From contig CAWKMU010000003.1 in NCBI GenBank assembly GCA_963850905.1, positions 2,912,001 to 2,976,000 on the forward strand: a DNA stretch of 64,000 nucleotides, in the 5' to 3' direction. The number at the start of each line of letters is the position of its first letter. Position 1 is the first letter of the stretch. This document shows positions 2,715-31,781 of this stretch, in pieces. The position numbers and the translations under genes are program-made. The DNA comes from an uncultured Gemmatimonadales bacterium. GTDB taxonomy: Bacteria > Gemmatimonadota > Gemmatimonadetes > Gemmatimonadales > Gemmatimonadaceae. The notes beneath the pieces are model-generated. The model worked only from the letters and a program-made list of their open reading frames with translations, had not been told where the DNA came from and ran no database searches.

Positions 2715-2745
2715 CGCCGCTACAACTGCTGGACAACTGTACGAC

Positions 2746-2894
2746 GCGGACGCGGGACCCGGAAACCGGTGTGATGCCGGTGCGGCCCCGCCACTGTATC
2801 GGGCGATTCGCGAACGGATCTGTACCACTGGTGCCATCCTGGCACTGGGAAGGTGGCGATCGCGGCCCGGAGCCAGGAGACGACCCTCGTCCGC
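2746..2894 (+). ncRNA. Cobalamin riboswitch
   Basis: GGAAaccGGTG, CGGCCCCGCCACTGT, CACTG, GGGAAGG and B12 box GAGCCAGGAGAC; closing stem gcggacgcggg/ccctcgtccgc; lies upstream of btu-like genes. Confidence 0.92.
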
Positions 2895-2924
2895 ACCACA
2901 CTGACAGTCCTCGGGGGAGGACTG

Positions 2925-16509: not shown

Positions 16510-16538
16510 TTGCCGCGCCATTCGACTGACGATAAGTT
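16510..16538 (+). promoter_or_regulatory. Putative sigma70 promoter for fluoride riboswitch 1
   Basis: TTGCCG-17 bp-TAAGTT, 16 nt upstream of the aptamer. Confidence 0.5.
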
Positions 16539-16554
16539 CAGCCTGAGAACCTGA

Positions 16555-16607
16555 GGGCGATGGAGTTCGCCCAAACCACCGCCGAATTTGGCGGTTGATG
16601 ACTCCTG
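16555..16607 (+). ncRNA. Fluoride riboswitch (crcB motif) #1
   Basis: GGCGATGGAGTTCGCC-AAACC-ACCGCC/GGCGGT-TGATGACTCCT; GGAG/CTCC pseudoknot. Confidence 0.93.
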
Positions 16608-16636
16608 TCTGGCTTCGGCCGGGCAGGGGTTTTTTT
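16602..16636 (+). terminator. Intrinsic terminator, expression platform of riboswitch #1
   Basis: cctgtctggc-ttcg-gccgggcagg followed by a T7 tract; overlaps the pseudoknot strand. Confidence 0.88.
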
Positions 16637-16664
16637 GCGTGTGTGGCAGCCACGGAGGGAGATC

Positions 16665-17891
16665 GTGTCATCGAATGTCTGGTTGATCGCGGCCAGCTGG
16701 ATGGCGCTGGCGCTGCTCGCGAGTCTCATCTCGATTCGCCTCGCGGTGTCGGTCGCGTTGATCGAGATCCTGGTGGGCGTGATCGCCGGCAACTTCTTCG
16801 GGCTCCATACGACGCCCTGGATCGATTTCCTCGCCACCTTTGGTTCGGGACTCCTGACGTTCCTGGCCGGCGCGGAAATCGAGCCCTCAGCGCTGCGACG
16901 ACACCTGGGCCCGGCGCTGGCGATCGGAGCAATGAGTTTCCTGGTGCCCTTCGCGTTCGCCCTCGCGTTCGCCCGATGGGTCGCTCAGTGGGACTGGCAT
17001 GCGGCCGAAATCGCGGGGATCGCCCTCTCCACGACGTCGGTCGCGGTGGTCTATGCGACCATGATCGAGACCGGCCTGAATCGGACGGAGCTGGGGAAGC
17101 TCATCCTCGCTGCGTGCTTCGTGACGGATCTCGGGACCGTGCTCGCGCTGGGCATCCTGTTCGCCACGTTCAACGCGTGGCTGGCCGTGTTTGTCGGCGT
17201 GACAGCCATCGTGCTTTGGTACCTGCCGCGCGTCACGCGCTACGTCATCGCGACGGTGGGCAACCGCGTGTCCGAACCCGAGGTCAAGTTCGTCTTTCTC
17301 GTGCTCTTCGCCCTTGGCGGGCTGGCGCAAGTCGCGAAGAGTGAGGCGGTGCTCCCGGCCTATCTCGTCGGACTCGTCGTTGCCGGCGTGTTTGTTCGGG
17401 ATCGCGTGCTGGTAGACCGCATGCGGAGCATCGCCTTTGCGATCCTCACGCCATTCTACTTTATCAAGGCGGGCCTGTTCGTGTCGCTCCCGGCGATCGC
17501 CACCGGTGCGCTGATCATCATCGCGTTGTTCGTCGTGAAGGTTATCTCGAAGATCGTCGGAGTCTGGCCGTTGACCCGAGTCTTTCGATTTGGGCAGCGT
17601 GAAGGTGCCTACACGACGCTGCTCATGGCGACGGGCCTCACCTTCGGGACGATCTCCGCTCTCTTTGGGTTGACGAACCACCTCATTAGCCAAAGCCAGT
17701 ACACGATTCTCGTCACGGTCGTCATCGGCAGCGCAGTGCTGCCGACGCTCGTCGCTCAGCGCTTCTTCCAGCCCGAAGCGGCGATCCCGGAGAGCGCGGA
17801 GGTCGTCGAGCTCGAGGAGGTGGAAGGTGCCCTCGACGCCGGCGCCGTTACGGCACGGCCGCGGCGCCCCTCGCGCGGAACTGCTTCCTGA
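16665..17891 (+). CDS. Cation:proton antiporter (CPA2/Na_H_Exchanger family)
   Basis: About 12 TM segments; FLAGAEI, LSTTSVAVV, AACFVTDL, PFYFIKAG; GTG start with RBS ggaggga. Confidence 0.88.
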   Translation: MSSNVWLIAASWMALALLASLISIRLAVSVALIEILVGVIAGNFFGLHTTPWIDFLATFGSGLLTFLAGAEIEPSALRRHLGPALAIGAMSFLVPFAFALAFARWVAQWDWHAAEIAGIALSTTSVAVVYATMIETGLNRTELGKLILAACFVTDLGTVLALGILFATFNAWLAVFVGVTAIVLWYLPRVTRYVIATVGNRVSEPEVKFVFLVLFALGGLAQVAKSEAVLPAYLVGLVVAGVFVRDRVLVDRMRSIAFAILTPFYFIKAGLFVSLPAIATGALIIIALFVVKVISKIVGVWPLTRVFRFGQREGAYTTLLMATGLTFGTISALFGLTNHLISQSQYTILVTVVIGSAVLPTLVAQRFFQPEAAIPESAEVVELEEVEGALDAGAVTARPRRPSRGTAS

Positions 17892-17900
17892 TCGCGGCGA

Positions 17901-18305
17901 TTATTCCGGAACCGCCTGCCAGCTGCCGGTGATGTCCATGGGCCACGGTTCCGCGCTTTCCTCGTCGGCTCGGTGCGGGCGGTACATGATGACCTTCGCC
18001 CGCTCCAGCGTCACGAGACCTCCGCCGATCATCTCATCGAGCTCAGGAAGGATCGCGAGGATCCGCTCTTCGGTCTCGATGCACTCGATCACGACTGGCA
18101 GGTCCAACGACAAGAACTCGAAGCGCTCGCTGCGGAGTTTGGCACTTGCGCCGAAACCCATGATGCCGCGGAACACCGTCGCTCCAGCGTAGTGTCGTTC
18201 ACGGAGGAGCTCGACGATGGCCGCATACAGCGACTTGCCATGCCACTTGTCCCGCTCGCCGATGTGAATGCGCATGAGAACGCGCTCGCCCTTGAAGCCG
18301 TGCAT
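17901..18305 (-). CDS. DUF190 (PII-like) protein
   Basis: LMRIHIGERDKWHGKSLY, GATVFRGIMGFG, LSLDLPVVIE, GLVTLE. Confidence 0.9.
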   Translation of the reverse strand: MHGFKGERVLMRIHIGERDKWHGKSLYAAIVELLRERHYAGATVFRGIMGFGASAKLRSERFEFLSLDLPVVIECIETEERILAILPELDEMIGGGLVTLERAKVIMYRPHRADEESAEPWPMDITGSWQAVPE

Positions 18306-18410
18306 GACAGGTCCCTCCGCGTGGACTCAACGACCGGGTGCTCGAGGTGCCGCCGCGTCTCCCCTGGGGCAATGCATACACGAGGGTACGAGGGGCGTCA
18401 ACGCCCGGGA

Positions 18411-18887
18411 TCATGGGCCGCCCCAGGGTGCGTCGGACGTCTGGTCGATGTCTGGGGTGGCATGCAAGAGGGCACGAATCGCGGCAAATGCCTCCCGGAA
18501 ACGGTCGAGGTCCGGCGCGAGAACCGCGTCGAGGTCTTCGGAAACGGCACCATAGCCGCGCAGCTGCTTCACGCCGCTCTCGTCCAGGCGGACGATCTGA
18601 GCCGAGATATGGGCTTCAATGCTGCTCGCCCGCGAGAACCCGTGCGAGTCGAGCGAGAATCGCTCGCTGAACACGGCGACATGAGCACGGACTTCGCCGA
18701 GAATCGGGCGAATACGTTCGGGGAAGCCTGCGGGCAGATCGGCCGCGTAGTGGGTGAGGATGGAGTCGCGGTCCAGATCAGGATCGAGGAAATGCTCGAT
18801 TTCGGTGACAGTGTCCTCGATGCCGGCTGCGAGGACCGAGAGATGCGCCCTCTGGGACTTGTTCACCAACGGGCGATGGGCCACCAA
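18411..18887 (-). CDS. Hypothetical helical protein downstream of fluoride riboswitch #2
   Basis: 158-aa ORF with RBS gggag; N.SQR.HL and LRGYG motifs. Confidence 0.75.
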   Translation of the reverse strand: MVAHRPLVNKSQRAHLSVLAAGIEDTVTEIEHFLDPDLDRDSILTHYAADLPAGFPERIRPILGEVRAHVAVFSERFSLDSHGFSRASSIEAHISAQIVRLDESGVKQLRGYGAVSEDLDAVLAPDLDRFREAFAAIRALLHATPDIDQTSDAPWGGP

Positions 18888-18913
18888 GAGACGCTCCCGC
18901 GTGCGAGGTCCAC

Positions 18914-18991
18914 GTAGGAGTCATCAGCGCCGGCGTTGGTGCCTGAGGAGGCAGCCGCGATCCGGTGCGGTTGAGGGCGAACTCCATCGCC
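18914..18991 (-). ncRNA. Fluoride riboswitch (crcB motif) #2 with an extended variable stem
   Basis: Minus strand reads GGCGATGGAGTTCGCC-ctcAACCGC-(38 nt)-GCTGATGACTCCTAC. Confidence 0.92.
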
Positions 18992-19001
18992 GACGAGTGA
19001 A

Positions 19002-19021
19002 CGTGGAATCTTGATTCCACG
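19002..19021. promoter_or_regulatory. Perfect 9-2-9 inverted repeat, candidate operator
   Basis: cgtggaatc-tt-gattccacg between a minus-strand TTGACC (19030-19035) and riboswitch #2. Confidence 0.55.
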
Positions 19022-19206
19022 ATTTGATCGGTCAAGGCACTGTGCACCGTCGAGAGGCCGCGGCCTGAGTGCTGCCGGCGACCTTAGCCGGGCCTTCGCG
19101 GCCCCTCCAATCCCCGGATCGGGTCGCCGCATTCAGGCTTCCAAAGCGCGGCACAGCATGCGAAACTTCCCGCGGGGCCGCATCAGCACGCAGTCCTGCA
19201 ACAGTA

Positions 19207-19296
19207 GGACGGGTGGCCGAGTGGTTGAAGGCACCGGTCTCGAAAACCGGCATACCGGTGAACCCGGTATCGTGAGTTCGAATCTCACCCCGTCCG
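19207..19296 (+). tRNA. tRNA-Ser(CGA)
   Basis: Acceptor ggacggg/cccgtcc, anticodon arm ccggt-ctCGAaa-accgg, long variable arm, TTCGAAT loop; CCA not encoded. Confidence 0.96.
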
Positions 19297-31694: not shown

Positions 31695-31781
31695 GGACGG
31701 GTGGCCGAGTGGTTTAAGGCGCACGCCTGGAAAGCGTGTGGGGCCGAAAGGCTCTCGTGAGTTCGAATCTCACTCCGTCCG
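31695..31781 (+). tRNA. tRNA-Ser(GGA)
   Basis: Acceptor ggacggg/tccgtcc, anticodon arm cacgc-ctGGAaa-gcgtg, long variable arm, T loop. Confidence 0.96.

Follow-up and report, generated by a model that had tools for sequence, protein, structure and literature searches.

A predicted fluoride-responsive locus of a Gemmatimonadales bacterium with two facing riboswitches around an antiporter, a DUF190 protein and a protein without a named family

What is the role of a locus that carries two fluoride riboswitches and lacks the channel gene found in related modules? The question is raised by a locus in a 64,000-nucleotide stretch of DNA from an uncultured Gemmatimonadales bacterium (contig CAWKMU010000003.1, positions 2,912,001 to 2,976,000 of the forward strand), hereafter called the window. 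Two inward-facing fluoride aptamers enclose exactly three genes, which encode a CPA2 cation/proton antiporter, a DUF190 protein and a hypothetical protein, here called HYP. The locus is probably a fluoride-inducible accessory module made of two convergent units, without the channel gene carried by related modules, and a variant of the regulon described in 2012. Rather than exporting fluoride, the antiporter most likely exchanges a cation for H+ electroneutrally, as judged from its conserved residues, its solved relatives and the crcB genes in this genome and beside its orthologues. The elements of the locus are as follows.

16547..16614, plus strand: fluoride riboswitch aptamer 1 (crcB motif, RF01734); cmscan 51.0 bits, E 3.3e-11, model positions 1-64 of 64
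16600..16638, plus strand: predicted intrinsic terminator; terminator scan (16600-16631 plus T-run) and minimum free energy (MFE) fold
16665..17891, plus strand: NapA-like CPA2 cation/proton antiporter, 408 amino acids (aa); PF00999, E 5.5e-38
17901..18305, minus strand: DUF190 protein, 134 aa; PF02641, E 8.4e-36
18411..18884, minus strand: HYP, 157 aa, unnamed family (alternative start 18887, 158 aa); open reading frame with a start derived from homologues
18894..18920, minus strand: predicted helix sequestering the Shine-Dalgarno sequence; sequence and MFE fold
18908..19000, minus strand: fluoride riboswitch aptamer 2 (RF01734), 93 nt, with an enlarged P3 region; 48.6 bits, E 2.1e-10, model positions 1-64 of 64

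The stop codons of the convergent antiporter and DUF190 genes are 9 nt apart. A terminator scan found no terminator-like site between them (17889-17903); with both switches on, overlap or collision of their transcripts would be expected. In the related locus L011, the tblastn matches of antiporter and DUF190 overlap by 16 nt. Domain searches found no crcB or CLC gene in the locus or in the 64-kb window.

Aptamers and expression platforms

The RNAs of the window were identified with cmscan and Rfam 15, in which the gathering score of RF01734 is 34. Both strands were scanned, and both aptamers exceed this threshold over the full length of the model. Their spans enclose the intervals 16555-16607 and 18914-18991, in which an initial annotation of the DNA had recognized two canonical fluoride aptamers bracketing the three genes. 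Throughout the host assembly of 4.49 Mb, which was searched for aptamers as a whole, RF01734 is represented only by these two. A second covariance model, R1, was built in this analysis from 68 Rfam fluoride-aptamer hits; all 14 Rfam aptamers held out from the model were recovered with it, 3 control loci yielded 0 hits, and aptamer 2 has a score of 53.4 bits. A 96-nt counterpart of aptamer 2 is present in a relative of the same genus (L094).

The plus-strand leader is predicted to be a transcriptional, terminator-type ON platform. The terminator has a 14-pair stem, a 4-nt loop and a U-run, and it overlaps the 3' pseudoknot strand of aptamer 1. The displayed Gemmatimonadota relatives L009, L010, L011, L017, L020 and L034 keep the hairpin and the U-run, and their stems carry compensatory changes. 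The antiporter starts with GTG at 16665, 5 nt after a GGAGGG Shine-Dalgarno sequence.

The minus-strand leader contains no U-run and is, according to its predicted fold, a translational ON platform that sequesters the Shine-Dalgarno sequence. In the MFE fold, the 3' CUCCUACGUG tail of aptamer 2, which contains CUCC, pairs with CACGCGGGAG. The latter segment includes the GGGAG Shine-Dalgarno sequence at 18898-18894, positioned 6-9 nt ahead of the TTG/GTG start of HYP. Of the 16 further HYP leaders displayed, most have an equivalent hairpin between tail and Shine-Dalgarno sequence. Both platform designs compete with the 3' end of the aptamer and both recur in relatives. Together with the covariance scores, the readable ON-type expression platforms support the prediction that both RNAs are genuine fluoride aptamers. 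The fluoride-response module that the initial annotation saw in the three genes is likewise supported.

The locus shares with the fluoride riboswitch regulon (RF01734) aptamers above the Rfam threshold, an antiporter as a controlled gene, and a terminator-type ON platform, a design reported for many crcB-motif RNAs (Weinberg 2010, PMC2864571). The review PMC11139923 ranks Na+/H+ antiporters second in frequency among the gene classes associated with fluoride riboswitches, and the link has been in print since 2012 (Baker 2012, as summarised there). The locus differs from the regulon in having two facing aptamers with different platforms, one with a terminator and one sequestering a Shine-Dalgarno sequence. 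Furthermore, its channel gene lies outside the module, and one of the genes under control, HYP, has no named family.

The database gene call for one HYP homologue, P0003 (225 aa), begins inside the aptamer, and its N-terminus is translated riboswitch. The string AMEFALNRTGS occurs both in the N-terminus of P0003 and in a reading frame over aptamer 2 of the window. P0003 may therefore serve as an example of open reading frame callers swallowing riboswitches in GC-rich DNA.

Antiporter residues and the distribution of the clade

The antiporter matches PF00999 with 131.2 bits (cut-off 26.2) and does not reach the cut-off of the CPA2 subfamily model TIGR00932 (109.2 bits versus 238.3). Alignments of orthologues begin at residues 1-3 counted from the GTG start at 16665. 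The best solved match of the single sequence is KefC (8bxg, E 6.4e-8); a profile of the clade matches NapA (4bwz) with E 6.2e-13 and KefC with E 2.1e-7. Conservation of residues was determined from 81 sequences, and the positions were numbered according to the eight-position CPA motif given by Masrati et al. 2018 (PMC6181914).

Motif in transmembrane helix 4 (TM4): T-T-S-V (123-126), invariant; in NapA A-T126-S127-V128
Position 5: A150, Ala in 78/81; no CPA1-type Glu, so CPA2
Position 6: T154, Thr in 75/81 and Asn in 6/81; in NapA D156
Position 7: D155, 81/81; in NapA D157
Position 8 (TM10): K296, 81/81; in NapA K305

NapA of Thermus thermophilus (4bwz, 5bz2, 5bz3) is an electrogenic Na+/H+ antiporter. 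The clade shares with it the x-T-S-V motif of TM4, the second Asp of TM5 and the Lys of TM10. NapA differs in having D156, R331 and E333 where the clade has Thr, Gly and Thr, and in lacking the lysines K268 and K292, each of which is present in 81/81 sequences of the clade; NapA contains Met and Ala at these positions. The K+/H+ exchanger KefC of E. coli (8bxg) has in common with the antiporter the CPA2 fold and the Lys of TM10, and the polar-Asp pair of TM5 is Q-D in KefC and T-D in the antiporter. However, KefC is only distantly matched, the antiporter has no C-terminal regulatory domain, and its TM4 motif is NapA-like rather than the Kef-like L-S-S-T (PMC6181914).

The acidic amino acid in position 6 that characterizes electrogenic exchangers of the NapA/NhaA type is absent. 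By the rules presented by Masrati et al. 2018 (PMC6181914), a non-acidic position 6 combined with Asp at position 7 and Lys at position 8 corresponds to electroneutral cation/H+ exchange. Therefore, Thr or Asn at the place of the second Asp of electrogenic exchangers, together with D155 and K296, predicts the exchange of one cation for one H+. Retention of the carrier aspartate D155 argues against an anion as substrate. The initial annotation had proposed that the antiporter could be a fluoride exporter of a kind other than Fluc or CLC; this is disfavoured by the complete conservation of D155 and K296, by NapA and KefC being the nearest solved relatives, and by crcB, which in 36/80 related loci is no more than 4 kb away from the antiporter.

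These loci were obtained by scanning species-representative genomes, which contained 326 relatives; all counts of antiporter loci refer to the best 80 of the 326, which have 59-87% identity and carry 12 phylum labels, including Gemmatimonadota, Chloroflexota, Verrucomicrobiota and Binatia. In 72/80 loci, an RF01734 aptamer that reaches the gathering score is positioned upstream on the same strand, and in 62/80 an aptamer is within 300 nt of the antiporter. Of the eight loci missed by Rfam, five have a weaker aptamer immediately upstream of the antiporter according to model R1. By its leaders, present in 72 to 77 of the 80 loci, the antiporter clade is dedicated to fluoride. Two or more aptamers are present in 13/80 loci.

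Within 4 kb of the antiporter, DUF190 is found in 45/80 loci, and crcB and DUF190 occur together in 34. The antiporter alone follows the riboswitch in 22/80 loci. Other arrangements are riboswitch-antiporter-crcB-DUF190 (7/80), riboswitch-crcB-DUF190-antiporter (6/80), and riboswitch-antiporter with a convergent DUF190 and crcB beyond it (7/80). In L020 and L036, a riboswitch and the antiporter on one strand face a riboswitch, crcB and DUF190 on the other, so that crcB belongs to the minus-strand operon. The gene between the minus-strand riboswitch and crcB of L020 is a member of the HYP family (hhalign probability 99.9%, E 1.9e-31). L020 has the convergent two-riboswitch layout including HYP and crcB, and the locus of the window corresponds to that module minus crcB.

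An orthologue of the antiporter was found in only 1/40 close relatives. This, together with 60-87% identity across phyla, gave rise to the idea that the gene had been transferred between phyla, which was rejected: in a quick tree the 24 Gemmatimonadota antiporters form a single clade (SH-aLRT 100), with that of the window beside L009 and L010, and the tree contains 13 changes of phylum label where the minimum is 11. Apparent stop codons in the antiporters of L016 and L034 are natural gene ends within the tblastn ranges. The antiporter frame of L036 (L036:4001-6304) is open for 768 codons, across the convergent DUF190, and probably represents a GC-rich run-on or an assembly frameshift; this sequence was excluded from alignment A5.

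Several neighbours of the antiporter stand behind aptamers of their own. MFS transporters directly behind a fluoride aptamer adjoin the riboswitch-antiporter unit at L041:2221-3462(-), L052:2124-3395(-), L067:4316-5530(-) and L038:2588-3817(+), making them a recurrent second class of transporter at such loci. At L062:7327-8403(+), a dynamin-family GTPase is encoded directly behind a fluoride aptamer. The loci L197 (G192:C10) and L196 (G095:C28) contain a riboswitch and antiporter and, convergent to them, a HYP/DUF190 unit that in L196 includes crcB; a search for a second aptamer serving this minus-strand unit found none in either locus.

Exporter genes elsewhere in the genome and the HYP family

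The initial annotation described the locus as free of a Fluc or CLC-F exporter. This holds for the locus and the window, and fails for the genome, which contains a single crcB about 88 kb from the locus (C3:3019175-3019513; PF02537, 108.5 bits; TIGR00494, 105.1 bits versus a cut-off of 80.45). No aptamer was found within 1.5 kb on either side of this gene with Rfam at E<=1 or with R1. The description of the module as self-contained was likewise too strong, since crcB is present elsewhere in the genome, and the relative L020 retains it inside the identical convergent layout.

Two CLC genes lie about 1.8 Mb from the locus, at about 1.10 and 1.16 Mb of C3 (L002:1138-3093 and L003:775-2808), and no Rfam aptamer was found near either. 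Both proteins have C-terminal extensions, and that of the second matches a CBS domain. CLC-F proteins are recognized by Asn or Met in place of the helix-D Ser, along with which a Thr or Val close to the gating Glu co-segregates (PMC4113899). The motifs of the two proteins are GMNVP/GSEGP and GHGIP/GAEGP, and the canonical anion-coordinating Ser is missing from both. Both are nearer to ClcA-type exchangers than to solved CLC-F: the two proteins match ClcA with E 4.1e-32 and 1.9e-29; against the CLC-F structure 6d0j, the first has no hit at 1e-5 and the second has E 2.8e-16.

The arrangement of the exporter genes varies within the genus. G004 has a riboswitch-HYP-DUF190 unit without crcB, plus a distal crcB without a riboswitch nearby, and G003 has a crcB without a nearby aptamer. 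The crcB of G009 and one of the two copies in G006 retain a riboswitch.

The start of HYP at GTG 18884 was chosen from the homologues P0001 and P0002, with TTG 18887 as the alternative. No Pfam or NCBIfam family was assigned when 84 members were scanned, which gave single chance hits only. A word-based search found 10 relatives. With a full profile search the family extends to 640 cluster representatives at E<=1e-3 (149 at E<=1e-10), whose length is 140-170 aa with few exceptions. HYP is predicted to be a soluble all-helical protein: the AF2 model, calculated from 84 sequences, contains five helices and has a mean pLDDT of 91.2 and a pTM of 0.73. A Foldseek comparison of the fold with the PDB returned nothing at E<=1e-3, a wide VIA-align comparison returned only generic helical hairpins (best Z 7.0), and the Atlas only unnamed clusters. 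Among the near-invariant residues are Q-R where helix 1 begins, the motif D-L-P, and the Y-G of R-G-Y-G.

HYP occurs in 34/301 Gemmatimonadota genomes. Its surroundings were compared in 54 loci, 30 from Gemmatimonadota and 24 from metagenomes (24-47% identity), several of the latter being near-duplicates. Among the 30 Gemmatimonadota loci, an aptamer is within 1.5 kb of HYP in 17 and within about 6 kb in 21; at least one fluoride marker (aptamer, crcB, DUF190 or antiporter) is within about 6 kb in 23, and none in 7. The commonest order, riboswitch-HYP-crcB-DUF190, is found in 10/30. A form without crcB is shared by the window, L094 of the same genus, L099 and L115. In the metagenome loci, R1 detects an aptamer in 20/24, and Rfam confirms 15 of the 20 scanned. 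HYP follows a riboswitch-controlled dynamin-like GTPase in L138-L141 (GTPase at L138:777-2474(+)), and an MFS transporter (L128, L129) or a HEAT/zinc-ribbon protein (L135) in others. Over all 54 loci, DUF190 is its most frequent neighbour (30), and crcB is present in 21. By these surroundings, the HYP family belongs to the predicted fluoride regulon and is the new element of the locus. We propose that HYP may be a soluble partner of DUF190, of Fluc, or of both.

Some further RNAs were detected in the window. A cobalamin riboswitch aptamer (RF00174, 72.8 bits) is at 2736-2903 (+). A tRNA-Ser(CGA) gene at 19207-19296 (+) begins about 200 nt past aptamer 2, from which it is divergently transcribed, and a second long-arm tRNA is encoded at 31695-31781 (+). 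Genes for tRNA flank the antiporter or HYP also in L010, L035, L036, L057, L061, L069, L070, L079, L130 and L138.

Proposed action of the module and other readings

In the mechanism that we favour, fluoride bound to aptamer 1 would lock its 3' strand in the pseudoknot, so that the terminator is blocked and the antiporter is transcribed. Fluoride bound to aptamer 2 would free the Shine-Dalgarno sequence for translation of HYP; DUF190, downstream on the minus strand, is presumably part of the HYP transcript. For each H+, a single monovalent cation (Na+, Li+ or K+) would be exchanged by the antiporter, and F- would exit through the crcB/Fluc channel encoded 88 kb away without a riboswitch. Fluoride toxicity arises when the outside is acid, because hydrogen fluoride (HF) then enters the cell and F- builds up in proportion to the transmembrane pH difference (delta-pH). 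In the direction that we infer, an electroneutral exchanger at acid external pH would let H+ in and the cation out, lowering the delta-pH and with it the accumulation of F-. Respiration would also be able to maintain the proton-motive force more as membrane potential, by which F- is driven out through Fluc. HYP and DUF190, which in genomes most often accompany each other and crcB, would act as soluble accessory proteins of the fluoride response. Collapse of the delta-pH would also explain the stand-alone antiporters. The opening of Kef acidifies the cytoplasm and thereby protects against electrophiles, which parallels the direction of exchange proposed here. Work cited in PMC11139923 describes fluoride-acclimated yeast as tolerating a lower intracellular pH.

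Several observations weigh against this mechanism. The host assembly is 82% complete. Relative to NapA, the clade has lost the acidic residues D156 and E333, both replaced by Thr, as well as the basic R331, replaced by Gly, and has gained the invariant lysines K268 and K292. The cation, the stoichiometry, the direction of exchange and the roles of HYP and DUF190 are ones that we infer, and any function of HYP, which has no known fold or family, is a guess. The reading presented in PMC11139923 is that riboswitch-associated antiporters counteract acidification, the opposite of the direction favoured here. Moreover, the antiporter does not always appear alongside a known exporter. Among the 44 assemblies without crcB beside the antiporter, crcB was found elsewhere in 19 and nowhere in 25; long CLC genes are present in 11 of these 25, the other 14 lack any CLC gene, and in 12 of the 14 the aptamer of the antiporter is the only one found. 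These absences are counts of genes not detected in metagenome-assembled genomes of unestablished completeness and do not imply true absence, although the fraction without both genes is larger than we would expect from incompleteness alone.

It is possible, if on the unlikely side, that the antiporter operates in the textbook direction, taking the cation in and expelling H+ to relieve the acidification of the cytoplasm driven by HF. That it handles the proton side of HF stress was the alternative offered by the initial annotation; it is plausible, and is the standard reading in the 2024 review (PMC11139923). The sequence evidence for a cation/H+ exchanger serves this reading as well as the mechanism proposed above. 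However, electroneutral expulsion of H+ would require an inward cation gradient greater than the delta-pH, which would be hard to sustain at acid external pH, and the work cited in the review indicates protection from fluoride by a lower intracellular pH.

The DUF190 protein is the only one in the genome and matches PF02641 with 122.6 bits (cut-off 23.4). It is clearly homologous to the solved DUF190/UPF0166 proteins PH1503 (2dcl, E 9.7e-22) and TM0021 (1o51, E 1e-17), both uncharacterised. We take DUF190 to be PII-like, with an analogy to GlnK and AmtB. That it docks as a regulator on the antiporter, in line with the regulatory role inferred by the initial annotation, seems doubtful to us. 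The sole DUF190 gene of the genome is indeed located here, and among the antiporter loci with DUF190 nearby, 11 lack crcB. DUF190 fused to four CBS domains is encoded beside the antiporter in three loci of the Binatia type (L049:2169-3503, L064:2178-3488, L068:1544-2866). In each, a fluoride aptamer precedes the fusion gene, and crcB and/or a second aptamer with the antiporter lie downstream. Fluorinase gene clusters of actinomycetes, as described in PMC9173684 and PMC3999930, include the cation:H+ antiporter flH and the DUF190 gene flJ. The likeness, which is one of description only, extends to the gene pair and its link with fluoride biology; the context there is biosynthesis, whereas here it is a stress response. 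A literature search joining fluoride riboswitch with DUF190 found nothing, and one for DUF190 and fluoride found only the fluorinase-cluster papers to be relevant. Against docking, DUF190 is missing from the vicinity of the antiporter in 35/80 loci but present in 34 of the 36 loci with crcB, so that DUF190 tracks crcB more closely than the antiporter. In Gemmatimonadota, DUF190 is co-directional with HYP, and with crcB where present, and not with the antiporter. In the window and in the relatives that share its convergent layout (L009, L011, L020, L036 and L197) it is on the strand opposite to the antiporter together with HYP and sometimes crcB. Its standing as the most frequent neighbour of HYP points the same way.

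A more far-reaching joint reading, which we consider improbable, is that the antiporter clade provides a fluoride defence independent of exporters, possibly as a third class of fluoride transporter, and that HYP is an unrecognised core protein of the fluoride regulon. The clade is the sole detectable fluoride-responsive gene in a sizeable minority of genomes and has exchanged residues of its core, so it may be such a defence; the 14 assemblies lacking both crcB and CLC keep the idea of exporter-independent defence alive, and leave direct transport of fluoride at low odds. Taken by itself, the suggestion that the clade moves fluoride (as F-/H+ or cation:F-), and is thus a third kind of exporter, is very unlikely. 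It draws on the same assemblies, on the replacement of acidic residues by Thr and the gain of lysines in the core, and on the loci in which the riboswitch is followed by the antiporter only. The carrier pair of Asp and Lys is nevertheless invariant, and the nearest solved relatives are cation/H+ exchangers. A second exporter would be redundant where crcB is close by, often on the same strand, and the host genome itself has crcB. A decrease in delta-pH would protect a cell without any exporter, and the completeness of the assemblies is not established.

It is hardly credible that the module is a decaying remnant left by the loss of crcB from an operon that contains it in 10/30 related HYP loci, because the three reading frames are intact, the aptamers score well above threshold with their expression platforms kept, the form without crcB recurs in L094, L099 and L115, and crcB persists elsewhere in the genome.

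For the accessory module proposed here, three elements are added to the known regulon: a CPA2 clade dedicated to fluoride and described at the level of residues, assemblies in which this clade is the sole detectable fluoride gene, and the HYP family. The binding-site signature of the antiporter (T-T-S-V, T-D, K and two additional lysines) defines a precise protein with which the role of riboswitch-linked antiporters may be tested. HYP is widespread and confidently folded, and offers a concrete candidate partner for Fluc and DUF190. About 1 in 6 of the assemblies bearing the antiporter show no known exporter, which bears on how fluoride may be tolerated without export.

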